From the IMG/VR virus record IMGVR_UViG_3300030019_000576: a DNA stretch of 64,000 nt; one strand, 5' to 3'. Source of the stretch: a virus. This document shows positions 30,927-58,879 of the stretch, in pieces. The notes under the pieces were generated by a model. That model had not been told where the DNA came from. It was given only the letters and a program-made list of their open reading frames with translations, and searched no databases. The translations under genes and the position numbers were made by a program. Each line of letters starts with the position of its first letter. Within the stretch, counting starts at the first letter, position 1.

Positions 30927-31850
30927 TTAAATTAAATATTTATCACCTTTACCATATTTTTGTAGCATCTTAATAGATGAACTACTTACATGTTCAAATT
31001 CTGAATCAGATAAGATATTAATAACCTTAATATCAGGTTTTAAATCTTTTAGATAACGATATTGTGTTTTTTCAAATTCTAAATCACTTGCATTTCTTAA
31101 TCCACGAATAAGTGTTACATCATATCCTAACCCATCAATGAAATCAGTTAGCAATCCAGTATAAAGTCCTGCTTGTCTATTTTTTAGTGTATTAGTTAAT
31201 GGTAATAGTTCATCTGACTTAGAAGTATTAATTCCACGTGCGATTATTACTTTATCAAAAATAGCTTCTGCTTTCTTCAATATATCATAATGTCCTACAT
31301 GAAATGGGTTAAAAGAACCTGCATAAACACCAATATTATATTTACGGTATTTAATATAATCAAGATATTCTTGTTTAATATTACCAAAATGCTTTTCTAA
31401 GAATTTAATTCTATTTTCTGTATATGTTTTTACATCAACAAATTGGTATTCTTTAAAAATACCATCTTCATATTTCATAAATGAATTGAAATCACCATAT
31501 AATACTGATAAATCATATTTATTCAATAGTTTAGAAGTTGGATTTACATCAATGTGATTCTTGGTAGCTAAAATTGCTTCATAAACATCAGGATAATTAA
31601 AAAATGTTTTAAAAAGTTCTGCTGACTTTTCTTCATTATCATTATTCATTGGATCATATACTATATCATGGAATACAATAGCAAGAAGTAATTCATCTGA
31701 TAATTTGTTATCATCTATTGCTTTCCCTATTAAATCCAATACATGATTCCAAGTATGGTAAAAACGTTGTGGTTCAGAATATCTTTCTTTGTAAAAATCC
31801 ACTAATCCCATTTTTTCCGAAATCAATTCTTCTATTAGTTTTATATCCAT
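30927..31850 (-). CDS. coaD: HD-domain protein fused to phosphopantetheine adenylyltransferase
   Basis: N-terminal HTWNHVLDL...VFHDIVYDP is an HD motif. The C-terminal half carries GVYAGSFNPFHVGHYDIL (HxGH), LIRGLRNASDLEFE and HVSSSSIK, colinear with E. coli CoaD (TFDPITNGHIDIV, LIRGLRAVADFEYE, ISSSLVK). Confidence 0.7.
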   Translation of the reverse strand: MDIKLIEELISEKMGLVDFYKERYSEPQRFYHTWNHVLDLIGKAIDDNKLSDELLLAIVFHDIVYDPMNNDNEEKSAELFKTFFNYPDVYEAILATKNHIDVNPTSKLLNKYDLSVLYGDFNSFMKYEDGIFKEYQFVDVKTYTENRIKFLEKHFGNIKQEYLDYIKYRKYNIGVYAGSFNPFHVGHYDILKKAEAIFDKVIIARGINTSKSDELLPLTNTLKNRQAGLYTGLLTDFIDGLGYDVTLIRGLRNASDLEFEKTQYRYLKDLKPDIKVINILSDSEFEHVSSSSIKMLQKYGKGDKYLI

Positions 31851-37770: not shown

Positions 37771-37800
37771 AAAAAGTGACTAATATAGCCACTTTTTAAT
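37771..37800 (-). terminator. weak hairpin terminator after the flotillin gene
   Basis: AAAAGTGac...gcCACTTTTTAA, a short stem with a T-run. Confidence 0.3.
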
Positions 37801-37820: not shown

Positions 37821-39674
37821 TTATTTCTTTGCTGTTGGTGTTACTTTTTCTACTTCTTTCTTATCTTGGATATATTTCATTAATTCTATACCAATAAGAC
37901 TATCAACACCAGAACCACCACCTTGACCACCGTTAATCAAGATTTCAGGAATGATTTTTACACCATTTTTACCAATTTCTTCAATAACTTTAAGTTTTCC
38001 AAAATTTTCAGCACCCATTGCAGTTACTTGACCTTTATATGATTCAGCGTTAGCCTTACCAATTGCTTCAATCTTACCAGCTTCGGCTGCACCCATCATT
38101 TGAATTTTAGCAGCATCTGCTTCTGCATTTACTTTAGTAGCCTTTGCGTTAGCAGCAGCTTTAATTTCAACAGATTTAGCTTCACCCTCTGATTGCTTAA
38201 CAGCAGCTTCTGCTTCACGTTGTGAAATTTCTACTTGTTGTTGAGCAGCAACCATTTTAGGTTGAATATCAGCTAATGCTTTCGCAGTTTCCAACATCTT
38301 CTTTTGGTCTTGTGCTTTTGTTTGTGTTTCGAAAGTAATTTCTTCTTCCTGTGCAATCTTACGGTCAGTTAAAGTCTTCATAAGTGATTCAGGTGGAACG
38401 ATATCACCGATAAGCGTATCTACTGCCTTTACATTATATTCATCCAATACCTTTGTAATTTCAACTTTTGCAGCATTTTGACGTTCTTGACGTGTAGACA
38501 AGAAAGCAATAACATCTGAATCTTGTGCTGAATTACGGAAGTAGTTACCGATTGTTGGTTCAAGTACTTGTGATACAAGGTTTTGCATTGAACCGAAACG
38601 TGCAATTACTTTTGGTGCTTCTACTGATGGAATGTGAATAATTTGTGATACATCCAAATTGAATGGGAAACCATCTTTTGAACGTACTGTAATAGTACTC
38701 AAATTCTTATCAAGATTGTGTGATTCACTACGTGCATTTGCCCAATTAAGTACTAAGTTTGTAGTAGGAACGATTTCAATACGTTGTGTATAAGTATTAA
38801 TTGCATATTTTCCTGGATCAAGTGTTTGTAACCACACCCCTTTATTACCTTTTTCTACAATGTTACCATGTTTAAATCCATCACCAGTGACATCTTTACC
38901 ATCACCACCTACATATGAAATAACAACACCAGCGGTACCAATTGGAATTTCTGTCATTGGTCGTTTTTCAATCTGAATTGCCCAAGGACTTAATGTATAA
39001 GAACCCGCTTGAATAACTTGAATTTGAAGACCACGTTGACCACCATTTTCTAAAAACTTATCGAAGTCTTGGAAGTTATTGTGACCACTAATTTCAGAAC
39101 CTGCAATAGAACCTGTTGTAAGTGGTGTACCATCCAATGTAGTAATAATACCAATTGTACCATCTTCAATAGTTGTAATATCTGCTAAGAATACATCAAA
39201 CAATAGTGAATTAATACGATATACACCGTTATTAAGATAACCAACTTGTTTACCACGAGAACCGTTGTTGTTCAAAAATGCACGTGCATTTTGATAATTA
39301 TCAGATTCTACATGTCGTGCTAAAATAAAACCTACTTCAAGAATTTTACCATCTTTAGCTGATACCATACCAATTTTTCCTTTCGGGATGTCAGTAAATG
39401 CAGCTAAATCAATTTTGTACTGCCATACCCAATAACCCCATCCCAAGAAACCTGGTGCTAATGTATCTGCTTGAAACCCTGCTTCACCATTTAAGGCGAT
39501 AATCTTACCATCTGGTAATGAACGTTCTTTACCAAATAGGACGAATTTTTTCGTAACTAATCCAATTCGGTTTTCTGGAATGATAATCATTCCGAATAGT
39601 ACACGCAAAATTTGCTTGTAAAAAATAATTGCTAACAAAGGGAGCAACACCCACCAATAACTTAAAATTTCCAT
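37821..39674 (-). CDS. SPFH/band-7 flotillin-like membrane protein (YqiK-like)
   Basis: N-terminal TM, an SPFH core (IIPENRIGLVTKKF...) and a long Ala/Glu/Lys-rich coiled-coil C-terminus (AEADAAKIQMMGAAEAGKIEAIGKANAESY). Local GC is clearly higher than in the flanks. Confidence 0.7.
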   Translation of the reverse strand: MEILSYWWVLLPLLAIIFYKQILRVLFGMIIIPENRIGLVTKKFVLFGKERSLPDGKIIALNGEAGFQADTLAPGFLGWGYWVWQYKIDLAAFTDIPKGKIGMVSAKDGKILEVGFILARHVESDNYQNARAFLNNNGSRGKQVGYLNNGVYRINSLLFDVFLADITTIEDGTIGIITTLDGTPLTTGSIAGSEISGHNNFQDFDKFLENGGQRGLQIQVIQAGSYTLSPWAIQIEKRPMTEIPIGTAGVVISYVGGDGKDVTGDGFKHGNIVEKGNKGVWLQTLDPGKYAINTYTQRIEIVPTTNLVLNWANARSESHNLDKNLSTITVRSKDGFPFNLDVSQIIHIPSVEAPKVIARFGSMQNLVSQVLEPTIGNYFRNSAQDSDVIAFLSTRQERQNAAKVEITKVLDEYNVKAVDTLIGDIVPPESLMKTLTDRKIAQEEEITFETQTKAQDQKKMLETAKALADIQPKMVAAQQQVEISQREAEAAVKQSEGEAKSVEIKAAANAKATKVNAEADAAKIQMMGAAEAGKIEAIGKANAESYKGQVTAMGAENFGKLKVIEEIGKNGVKIIPEILINGGQGGGSGVDSLIGIELMKYIQDKKEVEKVTPTAKK

Positions 39675-41938: not shown

Positions 41939-42400
41939 TCAAACTACCAAATGTTTATCCAATAATAATTCATTTAAATTTTTATAAAATGGTATTTTAT
42001 AGTCATCACATACTATTTTAACGTTACCACTTCTCCAATATTCATCAGGGCAGCATACGATTAACTTACCACTTGATGCTTGAAGACCTAATTCTAATAA
42101 TGATATAGGACTTTTACTATTTGGTAGAAAATTCATTATAATAATGTCTGAATATTCCATTGCATTTAATTCCCATTTTACTTGACCATAAAATTCTGCA
42201 TTTTCAATTTTTTGTTCCCATGAATCATCCCATACATCCCTACGTGGATTATATAATACTACATTCGGAAAACTACTAAAGTGTTCTTCAACATTTTTCT
42301 GCCAATTTTCAGATTCACCTTGGTCAATGGTACCTGCTAAAAAGATAGCAAATGTGCCATATGGTTTCTGTATTGGAATTGGTGGTTTATAACTTGTCAT
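41939..42400 (-). CDS. nucleoside 2-deoxyribosyltransferase-like (SLOG superfamily) protein, tentative
   Basis: GTFAIFLAGTIDQG resembles the YLAGP nucleotide-binding loop of NDT/DUF4406 proteins. Confidence 0.35.
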   Translation of the reverse strand: MTSYKPPIPIQKPYGTFAIFLAGTIDQGESENWQKNVEEHFSSFPNVVLYNPRRDVWDDSWEQKIENAEFYGQVKWELNAMEYSDIIIMNFLPNSKSPISLLELGLQASSGKLIVCCPDEYWRSGNVKIVCDDYKIPFYKNLNELLLDKHLVV

Positions 42401-42421
42401 ATTTTTATTTTTATTTTATTT

Positions 42422-42688
42422 TTAATATTTTTCCATAACTACTACACCAATATTACATTCACTTCTTGTTCCTGATATAGAAACTGATTTTACAATATAA
42501 CCATCTTTGCTTTTGCTAATTATATAATCTGTAATTCTATCTTGAACATGAAAATCACTAAATCCTTGTACAATAGTTACAGCAGGTTTAGTAGGTTTAA
42601 CAGTTATTAATTTCTGAACTTCTGGTGTAAATGCAACTGATATAGTTACAAAAATTCCTAATAGGAACATAATAAATTCTTTTTTCAT
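42422..42688 (-). CDS. small secreted protein
   Basis: Signal peptide MKKEFIMFLLGIFVTISVA. Confidence 0.4.
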   Translation of the reverse strand: MKKEFIMFLLGIFVTISVAFTPEVQKLITVKPTKPAVTIVQGFSDFHVQDRITDYIISKSKDGYIVKSVSISGTRSECNIGVVVMEKY

Positions 42689-42830
42689 TTAATTTTATTT
42701 TTAGGTGGTTTAATCGCATCAAGTTTAGGTGTAGTACCTAATCTAATTCTTTGTTTTGGGTAAAAATTTATAATAAACATTATAATTAAAGTTAATGCTA
42801 TTAAACTAACACATATAACAATGAATGTAT

Positions 42831-43025
42831 TCATGCTTTTTTATTAATTAATAATATTGATAATACAATGATAGTACAAACTATCAATGATGAAACACCA
42901 CATATTAATAAAAGAGTTAACATATTATATGGTGAATTACTACAAAATGCGCATATAAAAAAACCTAACCATAAACCTAAAATATTATTTTTTATTTCCA
43001 ATATTATACTTAAAAATTTTTTCAT
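42831..43025 (-). CDS. small membrane protein
   Basis: Two TM helices. Confidence 0.3.
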   Translation of the reverse strand: MKKFLSIILEIKNNILGLWLGFFICAFCSNSPYNMLTLLLICGVSSLIVCTIIVLSILLINKKA

Positions 43026-43468
43026 ACTCTTTTATTTTTTTTTCTGTTAATTAATTCTTTTATTCTTTCCAATTTATTCTTTCTATCTTCTTCAATAGAA
43101 GTAAATTCTTCCAACCAAATAATACTATCTGTTTTTTTTAATGAAGTATATTTATCAGTAATAAAAGATACTACATCGCTTTTATTAATACTATTTGGTT
43201 TATCAATAATTTCTACATCTAAAAATTTAGTTTTGCTATCACCTGAATCATATCTTTCTATTTCATTGACATAAATTAATACATCAAAAGGGAATTTCTT
43301 TTCATTTATGATATGTGATAATGTATATTTAAAATAACCTTTTCTTAGTGGACTACTTAGCTTTTTCAATTTTTCATTTACATCCTTTTTAAAAGATGTA
43401 TTTTTAGTGTATGATATAATATACAGTATTATCATTAAACATAATGCTATAATTAAGAATATTGTCAT
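43022..43468 (-). CDS. membrane-anchored hypothetical protein
   Basis: N-terminal TM anchor. Confidence 0.4.
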   Translation of the reverse strand: MTIFLIIALCLMIILYIISYTKNTSFKKDVNEKLKKLSSPLRKGYFKYTLSHIINEKKFPFDVLIYVNEIERYDSGDSKTKFLDVEIIDKPNSINKSDVVSFITDKYTSLKKTDSIIWLEEFTSIEEDRKNKLERIKELINRKKNKRV

Positions 43469-43480
43469 TTTAGTTTTTTT

Positions 43481-43774
43481 TTAATGTTTCCAAATATATT
43501 TACTTAATACGAATTTCATCTTTCTATCAAAATCGGGATCATTTTCTAATTCTTTCAACATACCATAATGATATGATGTATCTAATGAATTATCATCGGG
43601 TTCACCGTTACGTAGAATCATTTGATAGTTATCATTTACATAAGAATCTTCATCTTCATATGTATTTATTTCATCAATATCTTCATGTATTCTTTCTAAT
43701 ACTTTTACTACTTCACGATAAAACATAACCTTTTTAAGTTTTTTATTAATCATTGAATTTTTTTTGAAAGTCAT
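43481..43774 (-). CDS. hypothetical protein
   Basis: Co-oriented ORF. Confidence 0.4.
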   Translation of the reverse strand: MTFKKNSMINKKLKKVMFYREVVKVLERIHEDIDEINTYEDEDSYVNDNYQMILRNGEPDDNSLDTSYHYGMLKELENDPDFDRKMKFVLSKYIWKH

Positions 43775-44255
43775 TAAAATCTTCGCAAAAAATAATCAAA
43801 TTTATTTGTTCGGATGTCATAAAATCACCCATATGTTTAAATAAATTAAACCATTGTTCACCGAATAAGTAAATATTTGGTTTTACAATCATTTTACGAA
43901 CTTCATCTAAGAGTAAAAATAATTCAGCAAGTGTTCCAATACCACCTCTTTGAATTACAAAGGTTTCGCTTTCAGCATTTAAATATCCTAATCTATCATA
44001 AATATCATTACATATAATAGTTTCAGTTAAAAATTCATTACCTTTTGTGAATCCAAAAGACTTACATGTATATCCAAATGCTTGTCCATCTGCTTCTGTT
44101 GCACCCTTTGATACAGCTTCCATTAACCCACGATAACCACCATTTTTAACTATAAAACCCTTATTAGCTAAGAATCCACCTATTAGAATACTATCATTAT
44201 ATTCCTTTGTTGTTCTATCATTGATAGCACCACCGAAAAAAGTTGCGTATTTCAT
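43746..44255 (-). CDS. LOG-family (Lonely Guy / TIGR00730) putative nucleotide N-glycosidase
   Basis: GGYRGLMEAVSKGA (the GGGxGxMgA motif) and QRGGIGTLAELF (the PGGxGTxxE motif). Confidence 0.65.
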   Translation of the reverse strand: MKYATFFGGAINDRTTKEYNDSILIGGFLANKGFIVKNGGYRGLMEAVSKGATEADGQAFGYTCKSFGFTKGNEFLTETIICNDIYDRLGYLNAESETFVIQRGGIGTLAELFLLLDEVRKMIVKPNIYLFGEQWFNLFKHMGDFMTSEQINLIIFCEDFNDFQKKFND

Positions 44256-44260
44256 ATTTT

Positions 44261-44752
44261 TTAAATAAAATTTGTCATAAAATTTTTAACTGTTAAACAA
44301 TTGTAACACGGATGTTCAATACCATAAACATATTCAGAATCAAAGTCAAATAATTTATATTCTTGCCAAAAATCATGTGCTATACTATAAATATGGAAAG
44401 AAAACATTATACCATTTATTTTACCTTCATTAAAATATTCAAAATTACATTCAGTTATTTTATAAGAATAATTTGGATTTCCACTTGATAACATTAATGA
44501 ACTTGAAATTTTATAATTAAAGAATGCTTCACATAATAGCTTTGATTCATCTTTTGATAATATCAACGTATTATCTTGATTATTTTCTTTATATGCGTTT
44601 TTAAAAATTCCTTGATTTAAATTTTTTTGTTCAAGACCTGCTTTAAAGTATTCACTTCTTGTTTTAAAATCCTTTTTAATAATATTTTTTTCACGTGTGT
44701 AATTACCCATTTTTTTATTGGTTTTATTATTAATAATTATATACACATACAC
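44261..44752 (-). CDS. hypothetical protein
   Basis: Co-oriented ORF. Confidence 0.4.
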   Translation of the reverse strand: MYVYIIINNKTNKKMGNYTREKNIIKKDFKTRSEYFKAGLEQKNLNQGIFKNAYKENNQDNTLILSKDESKLLCEAFFNYKISSSLMLSSGNPNYSYKITECNFEYFNEGKINGIMFSFHIYSIAHDFWQEYKLFDFDSEYVYGIEHPCYNCLTVKNFMTNFI

Positions 44753-45095
44753 CTAATGAAAACTTTGATGTATCAATTCCAAATTTTTCAAATATATCTT
44801 TCATTTCAAATACCATCATATCCAATTCTTCTTTTGTATAAACACCAAAATCATAATTAAAATCTTGTCCTGTTCTGATATCACAATCTTCGCTTTCTAA
44901 TTCAATACCAATTTTATAGTTTGAAAAATAATAACCATGATTAAAAACAACTTCCATATCATATAGATATCCTCTAACGTCATCTTTCAAAGATACTTCC
45001 CTATCAGGTTTTTCTTTAATAATATTACTTATCCTTTCAAAATCTTGTTCTGTTATGGTTGTTCCATAAACTAAAGTCGTTTTAACGTATCCCAT
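44730..45095 (-). CDS. hypothetical protein
   Basis: Co-oriented ORF. Confidence 0.4.
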   Translation of the reverse strand: MGYVKTTLVYGTTITEQDFERISNIIKEKPDREVSLKDDVRGYLYDMEVVFNHGYYFSNYKIGIELESEDCDIRTGQDFNYDFGVYTKEELDMMVFEMKDIFEKFGIDTSKFSLGVCVYNY

Positions 45096-45099
45096 ATTA

Positions 45100-45453
45100 T
45101 TATAATCTATTATTTTGTGCTAAAATTTCAACCCAATGACCAACTATCCAACTTAGGAATTTATTATATTCTTTATCAGATGTTAGTTCATAACCTGAAT
45201 TTATAATCCATGATTCAGCAATATCTTTATAATTAATATAATTTTTAGAATCATCAAATACACCATCTTTAATATCGGATTCAATAAGATTACAAATTTC
45301 ATCTGAAAATTTAACTAATACAATATCAGTATATTTTTCAATTTGGTCATCAGTAAAACCATTTTTAAAATATTTATCAATATAATCTTGATTACCACCT
45401 GCTCTAATATAATTAATTTTTGGTGGTTCATTATTTTGTTTCAATTCTTCCAT
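45100..45453 (-). CDS. hypothetical protein
   Basis: ATG ORF with a promoter motif upstream. Confidence 0.4.
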   Translation of the reverse strand: MEELKQNNEPPKINYIRAGGNQDYIDKYFKNGFTDDQIEKYTDIVLVKFSDEICNLIESDIKDGVFDDSKNYINYKDIAESWIINSGYELTSDKEYNKFLSWIVGHWVEILAQNNRL

Positions 45454-45505: not shown

Positions 45506-46477
45506 TTAATTATTACTAATAAATTTATCAACAATATCTACACATTGTTTAAATCTGTCTTCAAAATCAGTTCCTTTAATGTAAGAAATATTCTTATCTT
45601 TAAAGTTATTGTATAGCAATTCGTGGAATTTTGAACGATTTGGTTCACCCATCCGACTACCATCATCAACAAAAGGTACATCATTCCATAGGAATAAGTA
45701 TAAATCAAATTTATTTGCATCTTCTACTTCCTTAGTGATATTTTCTGGGTGTTTATCAAATAGAAAGTTACTATAACAAACAGTTGTTATTAAATCAGTA
45801 TCAGAAAATAATATTTTATCCCCTAAGTTTTTTTCAATTTCTTCTGCTTGACCTGTAATTATTAGATTTATCATATCTGTATCACATATTTTTGTATCTG
45901 AACACACATCACGACCTACTTCTTTTGCAAACTTAAAGTTATAGTGATTAGATAATAATTCTGTCATAGTTGATTTACCAGTACTTTCAGTACCACATAT
46001 ACATATTTTTTTAGTATAATATGATTTAACTGATTTTGGTATAAAATTCCAATATTTTAATGGTGTTTCCCTTATTGATGTAGATGAAATCGGTGTGTTT
46101 GTTCTTTTTTCATCGTATTGCATATGTTTAATATTCATAAATCCACCAACATAATCACCATATTTTTCACTTGTGAAAATTATATTCACATCAGGAAATA
46201 AATCTGTTAAATATAAAGACCAAACCCTTGATATTTCAATATTTGATACAGATGTATTTTCCATATGTGATGTATCCTTATGAATTATTTTTATATTAGG
46301 TATATCTTTAAATTCTTCTTGTAACCATTTATATCTAAGTTCGCTTGGAATTTCTTCTTTATCGTGTGAGCATAATAATACATAAAGAAAATCAGAATTT
46401 GATAATCCAAAGTTTATTAAAGAAAGATGTCCATTATGTAAAGGACAAAAACTACCTAATACTAATCCTGTTCTCAT
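45506..46477 (-). CDS. nadR: bifunctional NMN adenylyltransferase / ribosylnicotinamide kinase (NadR type, lacking the HTH domain)
   Basis: GLVLGSFCPLHNGH (HxGH). ISSTSIRETPLKYWNFIPKSVKSYY...ICGTESTGKST aligns with E. coli NadR ISGAQIRENPFRYWEYIPTEVKPFF...ILGGESSGKST. A Walker B DTD is present. Confidence 0.85.
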   Translation of the reverse strand: MRTGLVLGSFCPLHNGHLSLINFGLSNSDFLYVLLCSHDKEEIPSELRYKWLQEEFKDIPNIKIIHKDTSHMENTSVSNIEISRVWSLYLTDLFPDVNIIFTSEKYGDYVGGFMNIKHMQYDEKRTNTPISSTSIRETPLKYWNFIPKSVKSYYTKKICICGTESTGKSTMTELLSNHYNFKFAKEVGRDVCSDTKICDTDMINLIITGQAEEIEKNLGDKILFSDTDLITTVCYSNFLFDKHPENITKEVEDANKFDLYLFLWNDVPFVDDGSRMGEPNRSKFHELLYNNFKDKNISYIKGTDFEDRFKQCVDIVDKFISNN

Positions 46478-46478
46478 T

Positions 46479-47024
46479 TTACGTTGTTTTTAAATGTTTT
46501 TTCCATTCTTTATAACCCGCAATTGATAATATTATTAATAATAAATTATACCCTGCGATGTAATACATATCTTGATGAAGACATAATATAATTAACATTA
46601 CATTATTTATCATAAAAATCCACCAAGATTCAATAACCTTTTTAACTAATAAATATGTTGCAAGTAGTGCGATAATACCACCTATACCATCAAGATATAA
46701 TAAATTATTATTAGTTGTTTTAGTTAATAATGTAAAGATAATACCAATCACCATGCATATTCCTATGCATAGTGCTGATTTAGTATATCCTATTTTTGTA
46801 ACTTCTTTTGTATCAACTTCATTCCATTTTACCCAACCATACGCACATTGACCAACTGAAACAAGTTGTAATACCATCTGTGAATAAAAGTTTACATTAT
46901 AAAAGTAATAGGTTAATAGTACTGCACTAATTAATCCAAATACCCAACAAAGTAGATTTTGTTTAATTGTTAAAAACACACTTACTATTCCAATAATGAC
47001 TGAAATTAATTCAATATTTTTCAT
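46479..47024 (-). CDS. pnuC: nicotinamide riboside transporter
   Basis: CAYGWVKW and C-terminal ESWWIFMINNVM...IAGYNLLLIILSIAGYKEW align with PnuC (NIYGWYAW, ENWLLWVIINV...). Its start overlaps the receptor stop (TAATG). Confidence 0.8.
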   Translation of the reverse strand: MKNIELISVIIGIVSVFLTIKQNLLCWVFGLISAVLLTYYFYNVNFYSQMVLQLVSVGQCAYGWVKWNEVDTKEVTKIGYTKSALCIGICMVIGIIFTLLTKTTNNNLLYLDGIGGIIALLATYLLVKKVIESWWIFMINNVMLIILCLHQDMYYIAGYNLLLIILSIAGYKEWKKHLKTT

Positions 47025-48997
47025 TAAAATTTAACTTTAACTGTTGTATAAAAATTAAGTGGAGCACCTATAAAATAAGCATTTTCCCCATTTGAAACAT
47101 ACCCACCCGTAAAGTATTTAGTGTTAGTTAAATTATTACCTTGAATTGATAAGTTTACATTTTTAGTTAATTGATAACCAATTTTTGCATTGAATAATAC
47201 ATAACCAGGAATTGTTTCAGTATTTGCAGGATTAATAAATGCATCCGATAAATATCGACCAGATACGTTTATAAAGAGCTTACCGTTGTTGTATTCAATA
47301 TTCTGATTAACTATTACATTTGGTGTATAAAGTGCGTGATATGATGTGTTATCACCTTTAATTTCACTATTCATTAATGTTGTATTATTATTTATAGATA
47401 AATTTTTTGTAAGATTACATGAAAAATCAAATTCTGCACCATAACGTGAACTTTTATCTACATCTGTCATTAATGGTAAACTATTTAACCCCATTGCACC
47501 TAATTGTGTAATTTCATTATTAAAGTCCATATAAAACAAATTACTTTGAAGTTTCACAACACTATTTGATAAGTTATAACCAAGTTCATAGTCAATAACA
47601 CTTTCAGGTTTAATTATAAATAAATCAACTAAATTATCATTCCCACCGAACATGTCACTTCTTGTAGGTTCACGGTGTGATTGACCAACCGAAAAATACA
47701 AAGATTCATTATTTGTAATTGTGTATGTCACACCCCCACGTGGATTTAAAAACAACCAATTAATTCGTTTCATTGGATTATCACCTATGTAAGTGAAGTT
47801 AACATTACGTAATTGTAAGTCAGTAAATAAACTAAATTTATTTATATCATAATTTGCTTTGATGTAAAAACTTCCTTCGTTTTTATATCCAGTATTTGTA
47901 TATAAGGAATCAATCTGAACAGAACCAGGGTGTGTCATATTTCCACTGTGTGTTCGATTATATGTATTAAGCTGAAATCCAGTGTTAAATTTTAAATCAT
48001 TATATTTTATAAGATAATTTGATGTGAACCCAACGAAATTAGAATTTAATCCAAAATTAAGCAAGTCAGTTGGTGCAGTAAACATACCCCATTTACCATC
48101 TAAATGATTGTAAAAGAAAGTATTTGTTAGAACATAATTACTTGATTCACTATGAACATATTGTAACTGTACAAAACTTTGATTAAAATCATCATTTTCA
48201 CCTTTAGGGTTATAATTTGTGCGAGGGTCTTTTAATATATCAGATTCTGATACTGCATACCATGCCATTTGATTAATTGATTTACCCGAAAATGCAGTCA
48301 ACTTTAATACATCCTTATTACCATAGTATCCACCCGAAAGAAATGCTGAATAACCACTACCACTTGAATTATATTTATACCCATCACTTGTATATTCTGA
48401 TACACTACCAAATAACGCAAATTTATTAATTAAACCCGTACCAAAATTAACATTAAGTGATTGTGTTCCAAAACTACCCGATGTAAAACTTGCATTAAAA
48501 CCTTTATCTAAACCTGTTTTACTTTCAAAATTAATACTACCACCATATGAAGATGTACCATTTGCTGATGTACCAATACCACGTTGGATTTGCATAGAAT
48601 TAATATTCATTGCGAAATTAGGAAAATTGCTAAAATATACCCCTTGGTCTTCACTTTCATTTAACGGAATACCATTTAATGTCATATTTATACGTGTTTG
48701 GTCAATTCCACGAATTCGAAATGATACATATCCATTAGGTTGACCACCATCAGATTGTGATGTAATTGATGGTGTTTTATCTAAAATATACACCATTTCT
48801 TGACCACTGTATTGCTTATCAATGTCAACACTATTGACAACTTTTTGGGAAATAGGTGTTTTAATATCTGGTCGAATACCTACAACTTCCACGTCATTTA
48901 ACTTTACTACTTTTACAGTATCTTTTGATACTTGCGAATAAGAGGTAAACACATTAAATAATGCGATAACCAACACAAAAAATTTAATTTTCTTCAT
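47024..48997 (-). CDS. TonB-dependent outer-membrane receptor
   Basis: Signal peptide MKKIKFFVLVIALFNVFTSYSQ, an N-terminal plug region, a long beta-barrel with alternating aromatic strands and a C-terminal ...VKVKF (terminal Phe). Confidence 0.7.
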   Translation of the reverse strand: MKKIKFFVLVIALFNVFTSYSQVSKDTVKVVKLNDVEVVGIRPDIKTPISQKVVNSVDIDKQYSGQEMVYILDKTPSITSQSDGGQPNGYVSFRIRGIDQTRINMTLNGIPLNESEDQGVYFSNFPNFAMNINSMQIQRGIGTSANGTSSYGGSINFESKTGLDKGFNASFTSGSFGTQSLNVNFGTGLINKFALFGSVSEYTSDGYKYNSSGSGYSAFLSGGYYGNKDVLKLTAFSGKSINQMAWYAVSESDILKDPRTNYNPKGENDDFNQSFVQLQYVHSESSNYVLTNTFFYNHLDGKWGMFTAPTDLLNFGLNSNFVGFTSNYLIKYNDLKFNTGFQLNTYNRTHSGNMTHPGSVQIDSLYTNTGYKNEGSFYIKANYDINKFSLFTDLQLRNVNFTYIGDNPMKRINWLFLNPRGGVTYTITNNESLYFSVGQSHREPTRSDMFGGNDNLVDLFIIKPESVIDYELGYNLSNSVVKLQSNLFYMDFNNEITQLGAMGLNSLPLMTDVDKSSRYGAEFDFSCNLTKNLSINNNTTLMNSEIKGDNTSYHALYTPNVIVNQNIEYNNGKLFINVSGRYLSDAFINPANTETIPGYVLFNAKIGYQLTKNVNLSIQGNNLTNTKYFTGGYVSNGENAYFIGAPLNFYTTVKVKF

Positions 48998-49995: not shown

Positions 49996-50886
49996 TTAAT
50001 ATATTATATTATTTTCACCAAAACCATATCTAAGATATTCACCATCAAATATAAGACTATTTGTTGTATCTTGATTTTTATATGTATTTTTTAAATATAA
50101 TTTAATATGTTCACCTTTGAAGTTTTTTGGGGTATATAAATAATTTCTACAAGTACAGTGTTCGGGGTATTCAAACTGTTTCGAATTAAAGAAACCCTTC
50201 TTCAATTTTAAGATATTAATGTCAATAAAATTATCAGTACAATATTCATTAACTTGTAATAATGAAACAAATCCTGCTGAAAATACATTTAATTCATTTG
50301 CGTTTTCTAAGAAATTAATTACTTTTCTATTAGTATCGACACCACCTTTTACTAAAGTGCATCCAAAATGTAGCAACCCATCTCTTGTATGATTGGATTG
50401 TACTTCACCTATTTCTTCATTTGAAATACTTTTAAACCCTAAAATTCTATCGTTTATTTTATTGTTATAGTGGTGTTTAGATAGTCCAATATTATCTATA
50501 TAATCTACTGTTGAATCAGCAAACATTTGAACTAACTTCAATCCATTTGTATTTAATCCAATATAAGTATTGGGATATTCTTCTTTTGTGAATTTTAATA
50601 CATCTTTAAATCTACTGTAATTTAAAGTTGGTTCACCACCCGTAAATTGTATTTTTCTTAGTTCAACACTGTTACGTTTTATTTCTGCTAAAATTTCTTC
50701 ATATTTTTTAAAATTAAAATGATTAGCTATTTCTTTGAATTCACAAAATAAACAATCAGCATTACATCCTTTAAATCTAACATAAAGATTAATATAGGGT
50801 TCTGTTATATCAGAACCCTCATTACCGAAAAACATACAATACTTATCACGTAATGTAATGTCTTTATCAAATAAGTTTATATTCAT
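49996..50886 (-). CDS. radical SAM enzyme (possible peptide-modifying maturase)
   Basis: GCNADCLFCEF is the CxxxCxxC cluster; FTGGEPTL is the SAM-binding GGE motif. Extra C-terminal cysteines (EYC, HCTC) could be an auxiliary cluster. It lies directly downstream of the Cys-rich precursor-like gene. Confidence 0.6.
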   Translation of the reverse strand: MNINLFDKDITLRDKYCMFFGNEGSDITEPYINLYVRFKGCNADCLFCEFKEIANHFNFKKYEEILAEIKRNSVELRKIQFTGGEPTLNYSRFKDVLKFTKEEYPNTYIGLNTNGLKLVQMFADSTVDYIDNIGLSKHHYNNKINDRILGFKSISNEEIGEVQSNHTRDGLLHFGCTLVKGGVDTNRKVINFLENANELNVFSAGFVSLLQVNEYCTDNFIDINILKLKKGFFNSKQFEYPEHCTCRNYLYTPKNFKGEHIKLYLKNTYKNQDTTNSLIFDGEYLRYGFGENNIIY

Positions 50887-51332: not shown

Positions 51333-52055
51333 TTATTTAAATTTTTCATCAAATATATCAAAATTATCACCTACTGAATTGTTATCGTTAATAATAGCAA
51401 AGACAACATTTTTAAATAAATCAGCGTATCCATTTGTTACTAAGATATTATAAAACAAATTTGAAATTATTTCAGGATTGTTTTTAAATACACCACACCC
51501 CCAAGCACCAATAACAATATTTTCAACATTGTTATTGATTGCAAGTGATAACATCAATTTTATTTTATTTTTTGTTGTATCAATATAATAAGAATTATCA
51601 TAATTACAAATTTCATTAAGATTCATTGCAGCAATAGTAATAACATCAGATACAATTTCGTCCATATAATCATAATTTACATCTTTAAAAAATATCGCAT
51701 CCTTTGTATATAACGCTTGATTTTCAACTAATGGATAGAATATATTACTTATAACATTAAATAGATTAGAACACCTAAAAAGACATTCTTCTTGTGCTTT
51801 TGCACCATTTTCTACACCACCACCAGGTCTGGAAGGTGATGCCATATTAAGAACACAACTTTTACCTAATTTACTAACAATTTCCAATGCTGTTACCGAA
51901 TCAGAATTAACTACTAATATATTATTTTTAATACTTGGTGTAACTGCAATTGTTACTGAATCAAGAAAAGTATGTTTAGTAGTGACTGATTTATTCATGT
52001 CAATACTATAATTTTTAGTATCTTTGAATACATTAATTAATTTATCATTGTTCAT
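51333..52055 (-). CDS. bacterial-type poly(ADP-ribose) glycohydrolase-like macrodomain protein (DUF2263/TIGR02452-like)
   Basis: NMASPSRPGGGVENGAKAQEECLFRCSNL contains the bacterial PARG catalytic signature GGG-X7-QEE. Confidence 0.55.
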   Translation of the reverse strand: MNNDKLINVFKDTKNYSIDMNKSVTTKHTFLDSVTIAVTPSIKNNILVVNSDSVTALEIVSKLGKSCVLNMASPSRPGGGVENGAKAQEECLFRCSNLFNVISNIFYPLVENQALYTKDAIFFKDVNYDYMDEIVSDVITIAAMNLNEICNYDNSYYIDTTKNKIKLMLSLAINNNVENIVIGAWGCGVFKNNPEIISNLFYNILVTNGYADLFKNVVFAIINDNNSVGDNFDIFDEKFK

Positions 52056-54293: not shown

Positions 54294-55430
54294 ATGAAAA
54301 AAATGAAAAACTTTAATGAATTTATATTTGAAGGTATAGATATCAATAAAAAACAGTTTATAGTAAACAAAATTTTATCACATTTAAAAATAAAATTGTT
54401 TTATGTATCCACTTATCAAATGTCATTCACTATGATATTACCATTGATGGAAAAATTCTTTGAAGGAAATAGATTTTCATTTGATAAAACACCATATAAT
54501 AAAACATTGTTATACATATACGCATATTCTATTTTATGCTATGAAAACAAAGATAAGTTAAGAATTATTTATGATGAACTACATTCTAAAAATATTCAAG
54601 ATAAAGAAATACAATATGCTATAAATGTTTTGAATAATATAAAATTATTATTTATTAAATTGATGGATAGTTCTGATAAGCATATTAAAACTTTCATTGA
54701 TGTATTAAAAAATAATGCATTATTTATACCTTACTTATCAGTACTTACTTCTTTGATAAATAATGAAAGATTAAATATTGAATTATTCACTGGAAAATTT
54801 GCAGATTTCCAACTTGAATTAGGGGAAGAAAACTTTAATATATTGATAATCAAGATAATAAATAAAATGAATATTATAGCAGGTGGTACAAATAAGTTAC
54901 AAAATAAAGAAAATGCAAAACCATTCTTAGTAAATGATGAATTTAAATCACCAATGTATCAATCAGAAAAACCATTTATATATGATAATCTTACAGAAGG
55001 TATAAATGATTATTTAACAGGTCCAAGTGATGAAGAAATAATGAAAAAAAATCATCTAATTGGATTATCCCCTGATAGATTATTAGTTGATTCAAGTAAA
55101 ATAGGTTATTTAGTTGGTGTAAAGAAAGCATTAGAATCGGGTGCTGATTTACATTGTGATGAAGATAACGCACTTGTATTAGCATGTAAAAATGGTAAAG
55201 CAGATGTAGTAAAATATTTAATAGAACAAGGTGCAGATGTACATACTGGAAATGATGAACCATTAAAAATGAGTGCTTTTTCAGGTTCATTAGATACATT
55301 CAAAGCTGTTATTGATTCGGGTGAAGAATTTGACGGTGAAACACAATCAATAGTAGCAGATTATGCATTTACATCTGATGCTTTAATGGATTATATAATG
55401 GAAATTTGGGAAGCAGATGATTTAAAATAA
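54294..55430 (+). CDS. ankyrin-repeat protein
   Basis: The C-terminal third has at least three ANK repeats (ALESGADLHCDEDNALVLACKNGKADVVKYLIEQGADVHTGNDEPLKMSAFSGSLDTFKAVIDSG). Confidence 0.55.
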   Translation: MKKMKNFNEFIFEGIDINKKQFIVNKILSHLKIKLFYVSTYQMSFTMILPLMEKFFEGNRFSFDKTPYNKTLLYIYAYSILCYENKDKLRIIYDELHSKNIQDKEIQYAINVLNNIKLLFIKLMDSSDKHIKTFIDVLKNNALFIPYLSVLTSLINNERLNIELFTGKFADFQLELGEENFNILIIKIINKMNIIAGGTNKLQNKENAKPFLVNDEFKSPMYQSEKPFIYDNLTEGINDYLTGPSDEEIMKKNHLIGLSPDRLLVDSSKIGYLVGVKKALESGADLHCDEDNALVLACKNGKADVVKYLIEQGADVHTGNDEPLKMSAFSGSLDTFKAVIDSGEEFDGETQSIVADYAFTSDALMDYIMEIWEADDLK

Positions 55431-57104: not shown

Positions 57105-57785
57105 TTAATCCATTCCAATGATTTTATCAATTGCACCGTATTCTTTAGCTTCAACCGAAGTCATCCAATAATCACGTTCACAATCTGCTGAAACTTTTTC
57201 AAGTGGTTGACCAGTCCTGGTTGAAATAATTTCATATAATTCATTCTTTAAAAGTTGAATTTGTTTGTATGTTATTTCAATTTCAGTTGCTTGACCTTGA
57301 ACACCCCCAAGTGGTTGATGTTGCATTAACCGTGAATGTTTTAAACAAGACCGATTTTTTCCCGATATAGATAGAATGTATGCCATACTTGCAGCAATAC
57401 CTGTTACTATCGTATTTACATCCGGTTTAATAAATTCCATCGTATCAAGAATACTATATCCAGCGTAAATTCCACCACCACCACTATTAATATATAAATT
57501 AATATCAGTTTTATCTGTTGAATTCATATAAAGTAATTGTCCTGTAATAATGTTAGATACATCATCATTGATAGCTGTTCCTAAATAGATAATTCGATCC
57601 ATCATCAAACGACTAAATACATCCATTGAAGCAACGTTTAACTGTCGTTCTTCAATGATAGTTGGATTAATATAACTGCTACTAAGTGTATTAGTAAATT
57701 TGCGATAACTATCTAAAGTTGTAGAACTTATACCTTGTGATTTTAAAAATAAGTTCACATCTTTTTGAAATTTTTGTTCGTTCAT
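57105..57785 (-). CDS. clpP: ATP-dependent Clp protease proteolytic subunit, with an N-terminal extension of about 45 aa
   Basis: GIAASMAY (catalytic Ser), LMQHQPLGG (His) and ERDYWMT (Asp) are intact; YINSGGGGIYAG is the INSPGG loop. Confidence 0.75.
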   Translation of the reverse strand: MNEQKFQKDVNLFLKSQGISSTTLDSYRKFTNTLSSSYINPTIIEERQLNVASMDVFSRLMMDRIIYLGTAINDDVSNIITGQLLYMNSTDKTDINLYINSGGGGIYAGYSILDTMEFIKPDVNTIVTGIAASMAYILSISGKNRSCLKHSRLMQHQPLGGVQGQATEIEITYKQIQLLKNELYEIISTRTGQPLEKVSADCERDYWMTSVEAKEYGAIDKIIGMD

Positions 57786-57814
57786 AATTTATTTGTTTTA
57801 AAATTGTTTTTATA

Positions 57815-58879
57815 TTATTTAAAATTGTTAAGTTTTGAAAGTTGATTTAATAATTCTTCTTCTTCATCCGTTATTTGTTTTGGTATTGTTAAATTAACAA
57901 CTACTAATAAATCACCTCTATTACCACGTTGGTCTGCTAATCCCTTACCTTTAAGTTTTTTAACATCATTTGGTTTAGTGAATTTATTTATTACTATTTT
58001 AACATCACCTTCTAACGCTGGTATAATTGCTTCACCACCTAATATTAGCTTAGTATATGGAAGATATAAATTAAATATAAGATTTTGTCCGTCTCTTTGT
58101 AATTGTGTATTATTAATAACATCTATAAATATAATAAGATTCCCATAAATTCCACCATTTCCTGGTCTAATAGGTGAATTACCTTTACCACTTGCTTGAA
58201 ATTTATCACCATGATTAATACCTTTTGGTACGTTCACATTTAATTCTGTTTCTTCCTTTACAACACCAGTACCTTTACATTCATTACATTCATGTGTAAT
58301 AATATATCCATCACCTTTACATTTAGGACAGTCAACAGTTGACATAATTATGGTTGAACCCATTTGTCTTTTCATGTTTACCTTACCCGAACCATTGCAA
58401 TCTGAACAAGTATCGTGTTCCCCACCCCAACCATCACAAGATTTACATTTAACTTCACGATTATATTTAATCTTTTTATCTAACCCACTGATAACATCAG
58501 TTAAATCAATAGAAATTTTTAATTTAATATCATATCCACGTTTTATATTACGATTTGGTTGTGATTGAAATCCACCACCAAATCCACTGAATCCACCGAA
58601 TGCACTACCAAACATATCAGCGAATATATCACCTGAATTAAATCCACCAAACCCTGTTGGACCATCTGGATTACCATAGTTATCATAATTAGATTTTTTA
58701 GCATCATCACCTAAAACAGAATATGCTTCTGAAAGGTCTTTAAATTTTTCTTCGAAATCTTTATGTTCAGGATTCTTATCAGGGTGATATTTTTTTGCTA
58801 AGTTTCGGTATGCTTTTTTAATATCATCTTTTGATGTATTTTTATCTACACCTAAAACTTCATAATAATTTTTTGACAT
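57815..58879 (-). CDS. dnaJ: molecular chaperone DnaJ (type I: J domain, G/F region, four CxxCxGxG repeats, C-terminal domains)
   Basis: YYEVLGV...[13 protein letters not shown] includes the HPD motif. A G/F-rich linker follows, then [32 protein letters not shown]. Confidence 0.8.

Follow-up and report, generated by a model that had tools for sequence, protein, structure and literature searches.

An NAD+ gene island in the viral window

The window analyzed here, a 64-kb stretch of viral DNA, carries an island of NAD+-related genes on its minus strand, together with two small open reading frames (ORFs) already singled out in an earlier note made from the sequence. ORF-A (positions 41939..42400, 153 aa) encodes an NDT-fold (DrHyd) protein of the PF15891 family, "Nuc_deoxyri_tr2," and is a predicted N-glycosidase or transglycosidase. 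ORF-B (43746..44255, 169 aa) encodes a protein with the LOG fold (PF03641 and PF18306), from a subfamily that is small and distinct. Both ORFs were found at the positions first reported for them, on the minus strand, and profile support for both family calls was far above chance level.

The island runs in the order TonB receptor, PnuC, NadR, three small ORFs, ORF-B, five small ORFs, and ORF-A, with PARG and radical SAM genes upstream, all of the individual genes described below being on the minus strand. The gene for the TonB-dependent outer membrane receptor (TBDR; 47024..48997; PF00593 and PF07715) has a stop codon that overlaps the start of the gene for a predicted PnuC-like nicotinamide riboside transporter (46479..47024; PF04973, 3.6e-35; phrog_1880). 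The latter abuts, at 46477/46479, a NadR-like gene (45506..46477; PF01467 and PF13521) for a predicted bifunctional NMN adenylyltransferase and ribosylnicotinamide kinase without a helix-turn-helix (HTH) domain, which matched phrog_3462 (1.2e-74) and TIGR01526 (5.4e-59), its NCBIfam scores being below the equivalog cutoffs. A microbial-type PARG is encoded at 51333..52055 (PF10021, 9.2e-21; TIGR02452, 2.7e-39), and the NAD genes and PARG-like protein that the earlier note had reported near the two ORFs were thereby verified. The radical SAM gene (49996..50886; PF04055) is assigned to the cluster tentatively, because a homologue adjoins LOG-like and NadR genes at one other locus (L218) and a LOG-like gene at another (L247).

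The distance between ORF-A and NadR is 3.1 kb, a stretch that also contains ORF-B and eight further small ORFs. Three of these, encoding 149, 121, and 117 aa (44261..45453), separate NadR from ORF-B; they had no Pfam or PADLOC match, and homologue searches matched contigs of the same phage only. The 149-aa ORF, upstream of ORF-B, was compared with a 140-aa ORF that overlaps a Chryseobacterium LOG-like gene, and the two are not homologous. PADLOC gave no match for ORF-A, ORF-B, or their neighbors, and a 14-kb segment surrounding the locus had no megablast match in a phage collection. The window also holds two radical SAM genes and RNA ligases. A promoter scan of this AT-rich DNA found 107 sites, fewer than the 124 found in shuffled controls. 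Only two plausible terminators were seen, and they bracket a block from 49.6 to 37.8 kb, which might, on this slight indication, be a single transcription unit.

PnuC and NadR have been experimentally validated as the NAD+ reconstitution system NARP3 (PMC13464706), and this gene content is present in the window. As in NARP3 (Bas30_87 and Bas30_86), PnuC here adjoins an HTH-less NadR. In the window, ORF-B lies 1.25 kb downstream of the pair on the same strand. NARP3 is a two-gene system of Enterobacteriaceae phages, whereas here a TonB receptor precedes the pair and LOG-like, NDT-like, and PARG genes accompany it. Judged from its genes, the pair in the window is NARP3-like. Neither a Prs-like ORF (Adps) nor an NAMPT-like ORF (Namat) was found within the 64-kb window.

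ORF-A is a PF15891 protein with conserved putative catalytic residues

ORF-A matched PF15891 in Pfam at 1e-30 (106.6 bits against a cutoff of 30), covering profile positions 2 to 105 of 105, and phrog_30579 at 6.6e-44. Among PDB structures it matched 4MCJ (7.5e-30), the only one that a profile search of the PDB gave, and the predicted model of ORF-A (pLDDT 91.5) aligned to 4MCJ with a TM score of 0.85. This structure, BDI_0649 of Parabacteroides distasonis, belongs to the same PF15891 family and is about 40% identical to ORF-A in the structural alignment, but it is uncharacterized. The earlier note had taken ORF-A to be the weaker of its two calls; the PF15891 match reverses that order and makes it the better supported one. 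The profiles proposed there for ORF-A fared otherwise: PF05014 (classical NDT/DNPH1) scored 19.4 bits, below its cutoff of 28.8, and DUF4406 (PF14359) was absent from the Pfam scan at E ≤ 0.1, and both identities were rejected. The "YLAGP-type loop" claimed for ORF-A is indeed an NDT-type beta1 loop, although its letters read IFLAGTIDQG rather than YLAGP. Likewise, placing both proteins in the SLOG superfamily is right for the LOG fold of ORF-B but not for ORF-A, as the Aravind-lab classification (PMC9503650) treats the NDT fold (DrHyd) as a superfamily of its own, sister to SLOG rather than part of it.

ORF-A shares the NDT-fold topology and, to judge from motif spacing, a glutamate in the helix after strand 3 with 4MCJ and, more distantly, with DNPH1/Rcl, MilB, NDT, and YtoQ, but its TM scores to characterized NDT-fold enzymes are just 0.56 to 0.64. 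Across the family alignment, E103 (in SKSPISLLELG), E77, F20, and an NPRR motif are invariant. By motif spacing, E103, E77, and F20 would correspond to E104, D80, and Y24 of DNPH1, of which hhalign aligned the first motif (the beta1 loop) only. Where NDT and DNPH1 have an active-site tyrosine, the ORF-A family would then have phenylalanine; it also has its own NPRR motif and a Trp-rich set of invariant residues. In NDT and DNPH1, tyrosine at this site favors 2′-deoxy substrates. A PF15891 domain also occurs fused to ART-PolyVal, at the N terminus of a 1,262-aa protein encoded beside a portal gene (Tunturi_5); the NDT-like domain is not mentioned in the polyvalent-protein paper.

ORF-B belongs to a small LOG-fold subfamily

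The LOG signatures first noticed in ORF-B, KNGGYRGLMEA and QRGGIGTLAEL, were confirmed, as was the expected match to PF03641 (8.9e-14; 52.2 bits against a cutoff of 27). ORF-B also matched PF18306, SLOG cluster 4 (3.3e-13; 49.9 bits against a cutoff of 26.3), and LOG structures in the PDB with E values down to 4.5e-11. Its predicted model (pLDDT 95.7) gave Foldseek TM scores of 0.88 to 1WEH (TT1887), 5WQ3, 5ZI9, and 9US2, and the top 50 structural matches were LOG, YgdH, PpnN, and MoCo-carrier proteins. R88 and E111, the LOG catalytic pair, and both glycine motifs (GGYxGxME and GGxGTxxE) are invariant in 39 sequences; R88 aligns with the arginine of the FFVRK motif in 5ZI9, and E111 lies within RGGIGTLAE.

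With the LOG/PpnN phosphoribohydrolases (PF03641; TT1887, YgdH, and type I and type II LOG), ORF-B thus shares the fold (TM 0.82 to 0.89), the GGxGTxxE motif, and the catalytic arginine and glutamate. It differs from them in its motif variants, with Arg or Gln for the proline of PGGxGT and Tyr for the third glycine of GGGxGxM (hence GGYxGxM), and in the additional invariant residues Y19, N73, D117, R120, and K121. At E ≤ 1e-30 the subfamily comprises just 25 representative clusters, and ORF-B scored below the NCBIfam cutoffs for TIGR00730 (58.9 against 96.35), TIGR00725 (46.5 against 106.9), and PpnN (20 against 450). Some LOG-like relatives are longer, with extensions at the N and C termini in which no Pfam domain was found. 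Three other identities were considered and rejected: canonical cytokinin LOG (NF058542; 28.6 against 300); DprA, suggested by the "DprA-like" label of phrog_23875, for which there was no Pfam match at E ≤ 0.1 and no structure among the top 50; and a ThsA-type sensor, which was likewise missing from the top 50 structures, the LOG catalytic pair being invariant.

PF15891 genes recur in NARP1 and NrtR-linked operons

Single-sequence scans of viral contigs with either ORF found nothing, and the scans were therefore run from alignments. The PF15891 family occupies at least 563 viral and at least 577 bacterial loci, of which the 80 most similar per scan were analyzed; these loci are phylogenetically related, so that counts overstate their independence. 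Of the 80 viral loci, 60 had Namat-type genes within 10 kb and 57 had Adps-like genes, and the Adps-like, Namat-like, NADAR, RlaP, and NrtR genes found there all shared the strand of the NDT-like gene. After dereplication of these best 80 loci per scan, 34 of 55 viral groups and 15 of 78 bacterial groups had a Namat gene on the same strand no more than 4 kb away. Set against the published NARP1 frequency in phages (4.3%), the binomial probability is 1e-32, computed from counts that overstate the independence of the related loci sampled.

The identity of the partner genes was supported by their sequences. The published Namat signature, the GSxxxxxxTRD aromatic clamp, was present in all but one of the 55 viral NAMPT-like neighbors and in all 16 bacterial ones, for instance as GSFTYQYNTRD, identical to that of the validated SPbetaL1 Namat, to which these neighbors are up to 59% identical. 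The Prs-like partners scored similarly to validated Adps. In most of the viral loci sampled, as in bacterial NrtR operons, the homologue of ORF-A is encoded on the same strand as Adps and Namat, either next to them or between the two. The bacterial operons read NrtR-Adps-NDT-Namat with DUF4291, Macro, ARH, NADAR, KptA, Metallophos, and PARG; two of them (L139 and L187) also carry TBDR-PnuC-NadR, as the window does, and in several (L139, L168, and L274) a member of the PARG homologue family directly adjoins the PF15891 gene. An NAD context was absent at 59 of the 80 bacterial loci and at about 13 to 20 of the 80 viral ones, CcrColossus included. A 145-aa ORF found repeatedly upstream of the NDT-like gene in viruses had no Pfam match and is unrelated to CcrColossus gp187.

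PF15891 is therefore a recurrent added gene of NARP1 (Adps and Namat) operons and is also found in bacterial NrtR-linked operons for ADP-ribose recycling. No relevant paper emerged from literature searches on PF15891, on 4MCJ, or on deoxyribosyltransferases combined with NAMPT, NARP1, or phage, and we found none linking PF15891 to NARP1 or NrtR operons, or the LOG subfamily to PnuC-NadR clusters or NrtR operons.

The LOG-like subfamily recurs with PnuC-NadR and NrtR

Relatives of ORF-B lie between PnuC and NadR at one locus (L218; TBDR-PnuC-x-x-LOG-NadR-x-rSAM) and after the pair at another (L223; TBDR-PnuC-NadR, then LOG). They also occur in NARP1 surroundings, in an NrtR-Adps-Macro-KptA-Metallophos-LOG-Namat operon (L230) and in the NrtR operons of Aquimarina addita and two other Flavobacteriia (L274, L275, and L276). 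In these operons the LOG-like gene overlaps its neighbors by 4 nt (Macro and KptA in L274, Macro in L276) or adjoins a PF15891 gene (L275). The small LOG subfamily thus repeatedly accompanies TonB receptor, PnuC, and NadR gene clusters in phages and belongs to NrtR operons in Flavobacteriia. An NAD context was absent in 21 of 29 dereplicated LOG-like groups, and the Chryseobacterium LOG-like genes are in a toxin/immunity-like locus instead. LOG-like proteins of a further branch, at 38 to 44% identity, are encoded among the housekeeping genes RecR, MsrB, YchF, and RNR, an uninformative setting.

A proposed role in NAD+ maintenance

The earlier suggestion that the two ORFs are relevant to the adjacent NAD genes has strong comparative-genomic support, given PF15891 in NARP1 and NrtR operons and the LOG-like gene with TBDR-PnuC-NadR and in NrtR operons. 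From the fold, the conserved catalytic residues, and the recurrent operon membership, all of which were observed, we infer an enzymatic activity, candidate substrates, and a benefit to the phage. We think it likely that ORF-A and ORF-B are catalytically competent nucleotide N-glycosidases of a phage NAD+ maintenance island and would aid NAD+ rebuilding, and both enzymes are probably helper steps in a phage counter to bacterial immunity that destroys NAD+. It is reasonable to suppose that they act on ADP-ribose-derived molecules, because both families recur in NARP1, NrtR, and TBDR-PnuC-NadR operons.

The phage island mirrors a bacterial NrtR-linked regulon that frees ADP-ribose from conjugates and restores NAD+ by two routes, one made up of Adps and Namat (NARP1) and the other of PnuC and NadR. 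Each enzyme would cleave the N-glycosidic bond of a nucleotide derived from NAD+ or ADP-ribose, the NDT-like one possibly by base exchange, yielding a product (ADP-ribose, nicotinamide, or ribose-5-phosphate) that NAD+ synthesis could take up again. For the NDT-like enzyme, the leading candidate substrates would be N-linked ADP-ribose conjugates or cyclic ADPR-type molecules, yielding ADPR, or NAD+ by nicotinamide exchange; pyridine nucleotides such as NMN or NR would rank second and modified (d)NMPs third. For the LOG-like enzyme, the first candidate would be AMP or another 5′-phosphoribosyl N-glycoside from ADPR or NAD turnover, yielding the base and ribose-5-phosphate, followed by NMN and then by an ADPR derivative.

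Such accessory steps would parallel those of the Macro phosphatase Adpp (NARP1-AP) and the glycosidase RyDEP, both of which extend NARP1, whose operons acquire accessory enzymes that turn noncanonical NAD+ products into ADPR. The logic is the same, an extra enzyme feeding ADPR or nicotinamide into NAD+ rebuilding, but Adpp and RyDEP are a Macro phosphatase and an RyR-domain O-glycosidase, whereas the proteins here are predicted N-glycosidases of the NDT/DrHyd and LOG folds. As the window lacks Adps and Namat, the pathway most strongly tied to ORF-A is not seen in it. The distance of ORF-A from NadR, the many homologues of either ORF without an NAD context, and the toxin/immunity-like setting of the Chryseobacterium genes also weigh against the reading favored here. 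A more specific proposal, which we hold only tentatively and consider rather unlikely as a whole, is that the PF15891 enzyme is an unrecognized component of extended NARP1. Working through a Glu-linked ribosyl-enzyme intermediate, it would release ADPR by hydrolysis from N-glycosidic ADP-ribose conjugates or cyclic forms (such as cADPR, N7-cADPR, His-ADPR, or ADPr-nucleobases), or exchange the base with nicotinamide to give NAD+ directly, so that phages would both shut down and reuse ADPR-based immune signals; the LOG enzyme would then carry out a second, distinct step.

Somewhat less probable again is that one or both enzymes mainly hydrolyze ADPR messengers (cADPR isomers, N7-cADPR, or His-ADPR) against Thoeris-like signaling, with NAD+ salvage as a side benefit. 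The TIR/DrHyd/SLOG class works on the N-glycosidic bonds of NAD+-derived nucleotides, the position of the PF15891-ART-PolyVal fusion by a portal gene suggests an early effector delivered with the virion, and RyDEP is a precedent for one enzyme that inactivates signals and feeds NARP1. Yet both families are chromosomal in NrtR-linked operons of many bacterial phyla, which argues for an endogenous metabolite, and the links in 2′cADPR and 3′cADPR are O-glycosidic ribose-ribose bonds, outside classical NDT or LOG chemistry; moreover, neither a PADLOC match nor a direct Thoeris association was found.

We regard as improbable that the two are general enzymes of nucleotide pools or modified nucleotides unrelated to NAD+, with ORF-A acting like DNPH1 or MilB and ORF-B like LOG or PpnN on (d)NMPs, in DNA hypermodification, dNMP sanitizing, or purine base release. 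Their nearest characterized structural relatives (MilB, DNPH1, and NDTs for ORF-A; LOG and PpnN for ORF-B), the many homologues without NAD neighbors, and the radical SAM and RNA ligase genes in the window are consistent with such roles. Against them, base modification genes were not recurrent beside the two families (160 plus about 100 loci surveyed), where the recurrent partners were Namat, Adps, NADAR, Macro, ARH, KptA, PARG, NrtR, PnuC, and NadR, leaving the modified-nucleotide idea of the earlier note without contextual support. The score of ORF-A under the PF05014 cutoff, those of ORF-B far under the LOG/PpnN equivalog cutoffs, and the invariant F20 in the apparent place of the NDT/DNPH1 tyrosine also argue against it. 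Finally, it is very improbable that ORF-B is noncatalytic and senses or soaks up nucleotides in the way of the ThsA SLOG domain, or that it binds DNA in the manner of DprA, since the binding of cADPR isomers by YpsA/ThsA-clade SLOG domains and the phrog_23875 annotation are set against invariant catalytic residues and glycine motifs and the lack of ThsA and DprA matches described above.

NAD+ depletion and ADPR-derived signaling are among the commonest antiphage strategies of bacteria, and the discovery of phage NAD+ reconstitution (NARP1, NARP2, and NARP3) and of its accessories (Adpp and RyDEP) is under way now. PF15891 is a very large, highly conserved, and uncharacterized family embedded in NARP1 operons far above chance. 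The experiments that the two families prompt could define new steps of NAD+ and ADP-ribose recycling in bacteria and phages, and could explain what the "extra" genes of NAD+-rebuilding operons counter.

Identity and conservation of the two proteins

ORF-A (41939..42400, minus strand) and ORF-B (43746..44255, minus strand) are both present as claimed in the earlier note and encode proteins of 153 and 169 residues, respectively. ORF-A had been called NDT/DUF4406-like and ranked as the weaker of the two assignments. The NDT-type fold was borne out by a full-length match to the PF15891 (Nuc_deoxyri_tr2) profile with an E-value of 1e-30, which makes it the stronger call, whereas the score for the classical NDT family PF05014 was under threshold and the DUF4406 profile was not reported for ORF-A. 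Further matches were phrog_30579 (6.6e-44) and 4MCJ, an uncharacterised structural-genomics entry (7.5e-30). The predicted model (pLDDT 91.5) gave a TM score of 0.85 to 4MCJ, with YtoQ, MilB, DNPH1, and NDTs as more distant matches. The family is very large: the word index gave over 4300 hits, and no fewer than 563 viral and 577 bacterial genome loci were counted. It is also unusually conserved, with 47 to 64% identity over Bacteroidota, Planctomycetota, Myxococcota, Cyanobacteria, Chloroflexota, and phages. Its invariant residues include the FLAGxI...G beta1 loop, W33, N51-P52-R53-R54, W57, W76, E77, S97-P98, E103, R123, and N126.

The human DNPH1 sequence used for comparison was confirmed against PDB entries. 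Only the beta1 loop was aligned by hhalign between the ORF-A family and DNPH1, with DNPH1 Y24 facing the invariant F20. In motif spacing, D80-(8)-D88 of DNPH1 matches E77-(8)-D85 of ORF-A, and PSLGVGYE104LG matches SKSPISLLE103LG. Judging from this spacing rather than from a structural alignment, ORF-A probably keeps the two acidic residues seen in NDT-fold N-glycosidases. The Aravind-lab scheme places the NDT fold (DrHyd) as a sister of SLOG within the TIR-DrHyd-SLOG class, and the viral DrHyd domains in that survey were of the ADP-ribosyl-cyclase type only (PMC9503650).

The assignment of ORF-B to the LOG family held, with matches to PF03641 (LOG, 8.9e-14), PF18306 (SLOG cluster 4, 3.3e-13), and LOG crystal structures (best 4.5e-11). 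Its AlphaFold model (pLDDT 95.7) gave TM scores of 0.82 to 0.89 to TT1887, YgdH, type-I and type-II LOGs, and PpnN. Neither ThsA-type nor DprA structures were among the top structural matches. The PHROG label “DprA-like” is misleading. A 39-sequence alignment of the family revealed invariant F7-G8-G9, GGYxGxME, R88, GGxGTxxE (E111), D117, and R120-K121; the catalytic arginine and glutamate of LOG enzymes align with R88 and E111. A canonical LOG was rejected (28.6 bits against the cut-off of 300 of the cytokinin-LOG equivalog), and scores were under all three cut-offs for TIGR00730, TIGR00725, and PpnN. At E <= 1e-30, only 25 representative clusters were found among 1.84 billion proteins. Given this restricted distribution, the scores under the LOG and PpnN cut-offs, the LOG fold, and the invariant R88 and E111, ORF-B represents a small, distinct LOG subfamily that is probably catalytic.

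NDT-like genes are associated with NARP1 genes

The context of the ORF-A family was analyzed by seed searches in 80 viral and 80 bacterial loci, with flanks of 10 kb and 8 kb, respectively; each scan comprised the 80 most similar loci and is thus biased in its sampling. A NAMPT-like gene flanked the NDT-like gene in 60/80 viral and 19/80 bacterial loci, and a Prs-like gene in 57/80 and 16/80. After dereplication, Namat (a NAMPT homologue) was found within 4 kb on the same strand in 34 of the 55 viral groups and 15 of the 78 bacterial groups, and Adps (a Prs homologue) in 27 and 14 of them. All seed-family genes detected in viral loci shared the strand of the NDT-like gene, most often in the order Prs>NDT>NAMPT (18 loci) or Prs>NAMPT>NDT (17 loci), and NADAR was often present.

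Namat carries a “selectivity clamp” signature, GS-X-Phi-X-Phi-X-Phi-TRD (PMC12774641). This signature was present in 54/55 viral and 16/16 bacterial NAMPT-like neighbours, and its commonest form, GSFTYQYNTRD, is that of SPbetaL1 Namat, an enzyme with experimental validation that shares 59% identity with the Ferruginibacter protein. Since the Prs-like partners also score on Prs models as SPbetaL1 Adps does, the partners are, by these sequence criteria, the NARP1 enzymes Adps and Namat, not Prs and NadV. Against the published NARP1 frequency of 4.3% in phages, the dereplicated viral Namat count has a binomial probability of about 1e-32, a figure inflated by relatedness among the loci. NAD neighbours are missing around many homologues. 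Other recurring neighbours were a weak-Macro 172-aa family (16 viral groups), NADAR, Thg1, YqeY, 2OG-Fe(II) oxygenase, and, within 4 kb in 6 dereplicated viral groups, an SPFH family.

Two bacterial operons, L139 (NrtR>Adps>NADAR>KptA>Metallophos>PARG>NDT>Namat>ARH>Macro>ARH>ARH>TBDR>PnuC>NadR) and L187 (NrtR>Adps>NDT>Namat>ARH>TBDR>PnuC>NadR), contain essentially all NAD-related genes of the window. Ferruginibacter and another Bacteroidota genome have an operon of NrtR, Prs-like, PF15891, NAMPT-like, DUF4291, Macro or ARH, NADAR, KptA, and Metallophos genes.

In Erythrobacter phage vB_EliS-L02 (L010, 4004..5465) and one IMG/VR contig (L078), the NDT-like gene lies directly 3′ of RlaP, an RNA-repair-pathway Pol-beta nucleotidyltransferase, which hints at an RNA-repair link, as with KptA in bacterial operons. 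Beside the portal gene of Tunturiibacter phage Tunturi_5, gp225 (1262 aa; L008, 4980..8768; PP885688.1), annotated as MutT/NUDIX, carries a PF15891 NDT-like domain (2.8e-25) at its N terminus and ART-PolyVal (4.6e-32) after it. It is a probable virion-delivered polyvalent protein bearing an NDT-fold domain, a domain absent from those of the 2017 polyvalent-protein survey.

LOG-like genes occur in NAD-related operons

For the ORF-B family, 20 viral and 80 metagenomic loci were reduced to 53 dereplicated groups, 29 of which had at least 6 kb of sequence; NAD-related neighbours were found in 8/29. Of these eight, L218 reads TBDR>PnuC>x>x>LOG>NadR>x>radical-SAM, L223 has TBDR>PnuC>NadR with LOG downstream as in the window, and L230 reads NrtR>Adps>Macro>KptA>Metallophos>LOG>Namat with the Namat motif present. 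Nampt-type and Prs-like genes lie upstream in L024 and L028, NADAR lies nearby in L020, and L249 has a Macro-domain gene on the opposite strand; in the eighth, L247, the neighbour is a radical SAM gene. Several jumbo-phage loci have only orphan ORFs as neighbours.

The link to NrtR operons is explicit in cultured Flavobacteriia. The operons read NrtR-Adps-PF15891-ARH-NADAR-PARG-DUF4291-Macro-LOG-KptA-2OGFe-ARH-ARH-Metallophos in Aquimarina addita (L274), NrtR-Namat-Adps-NADAR-PF15891-LOG-Metallophos-Macro in a second genome (L275), and NrtR-Adps-ARH-DUF4291-Macro-LOG-KptA-2OGFe-Metallophos-Namat in a third (L276). In A. addita, the LOG gene shares 4 nt with both Macro and KptA; in the third genome, it overlaps Macro. 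The orthologues in these operons show 45 to 46% identity to ORF-B and 50 to 55% to ORF-A. As PF15891 and LOG-like genes share one operon, the two families are not simply interchangeable; they occurred together in no other phage locus sampled.

NAMPT-family genes upstream of viral LOG-like genes (L024, 2359..3843; L028, 726..2210; L033, 628..2112) lack the Namat clamp motif and carry in its place a 10-residue insertion (GAGGFSMLSYMD....FSRD), which may mark a third type of specificity in the Nampt/Namat family. In Chryseobacterium (L005, 7582..8531; L279/L280, 8582..9531), the LOG-like gene and a conserved 140-aa ORF share 4 nt, and the pair follows very large unannotated proteins beside patatin, YwqJ-family deaminase, and SUKH-3 immunity genes. 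This context is toxin/immunity or defence-like, quite unlike the NrtR operons.

The NAD island of the window

The window (G+C about 25%, nearly all genes on the minus strand) encodes primase-like, RNA-ligase, ClpP, DnaJ, and sigma-factor proteins and many orphan small ORFs, and contains no tRNA genes. Genes related to those of the window were found on IMG/VR contigs of 130 to 675 kb, and the window is best read as a piece of a large phage whose host probably belongs to the Bacteroidota. Neither Adps nor Namat is in the 64-kb window (source contig about 67 kb). The TonB-dependent receptor (TBDR) gene (47024..48997, minus strand) overlaps by its stop the start of PnuC (46479..47024), and NadR (45506..46477) follows. 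This trio closes L139 and L187 and recurs in the phage-like contigs L218 and L223. NARP3 consists of PnuC and NadR (PMC13464706), and the PnuC-NadR pair of the window agrees with that published system. The arrangement suggests that, in phages infecting Gram-negative (Bacteroidota) bacteria, the TBDR adds an outer-membrane uptake step to a NARP3-type nicotinamide riboside pathway.

A radical SAM gene (49996..50886, minus strand) shows weak similarity to the viperin-like, NrdG, and QueE families. It may be part of this functional cluster: in L218 a homologue lies beside NadR and the LOG-like gene, and in L247 one immediately precedes the LOG-like gene. An SPFH/Band-7 protein of 617 aa (37821..39674, minus strand) is encoded 2.3 kb downstream of ORF-A and is followed by the clearest terminator-like hairpin (37797..37771). 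Two such hairpins flank 49.6 to 37.8 kb; transcription-signal scans were otherwise uninformative. A second cytidylyltransferase-fold protein (30927..31850, minus strand; 307 aa) could be a further nucleotide-cofactor enzyme: the C-terminal half shows similarity to pantetheine-phosphate or NMN adenylyltransferases (TIGR01510, 4.4e-24), and the first 170 aa have no assignment. Cell-like regulatory and chaperone genes uncommon in phages were also observed, namely a histidine-kinase ATPase and receiver-domain protein, a sigma-70 family factor, an ankyrin-repeat protein (opposite strand), ClpP, and full-length DnaJ (20..874, plus; 8110..8973, minus; 54294..55430, plus; 57105..58879, minus).

Proposed role in NAD+ reconstitution

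NARP1 converts ADPR and nicotinamide to NAD+, and ADPR frees NrtR from DNA. KptA, Metallophos, and Macro accompany Adps and Namat in bacterial NrtR operons (L274, L275, L276, L139, and the further locus L011). From the known activities of these families and of ARH, PARG, and NADAR, a closed cycle is proposed in which NAD+ passes through ADPR-cyclic phosphate and ADPR and would be regenerated by KptA, the phosphoesterase, Macro, Adps, and Namat acting together, with ARH, PARG (51333..52055 in the window), and NADAR liberating ADPR from macromolecules. DUF4291 and 2OG-Fe(II) oxygenase are further recurring operon members. As predicted N-glycosidases, ORF-A and ORF-B would each cleave the N-glycosidic bond of an NAD- or ADPR-derived nucleotide, ORF-A possibly transferring instead, and the product would return to NAD+ synthesis.

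AMP arises from Adps and ADPR pyrophosphatases. Because the LOG fold hydrolyses 5′-phosphoribosyl-purine N-glycosides, AMP or a similar nucleotide would be the most parsimonious candidate for the LOG-like substrate. For the NDT-like enzyme, we hypothesize an N-linked ADPR conjugate, a cyclic ADPR-type molecule, or a pyridine nucleotide, based on three invariant arginines, a Trp-rich pocket, a Phe replacing the deoxy-selecting Tyr, the neighbouring PARG, NADAR, and Namat genes, and the ART-PolyVal fusion in Tunturi_5. Both substrate proposals are hypotheses drawn from fold, residue conservation, and gene association.

The searchable literature yielded no description of PF15891 as a systematic member of NARP1 and NrtR operons, of the LOG subfamily's association with PnuC-NadR and NrtR operons, or of a phage NAD island that unites the two families with PARG and a TonB-dependent receptor. 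The two proteins are new members of known folds and candidate accessory steps of NAD+ reconstitution.
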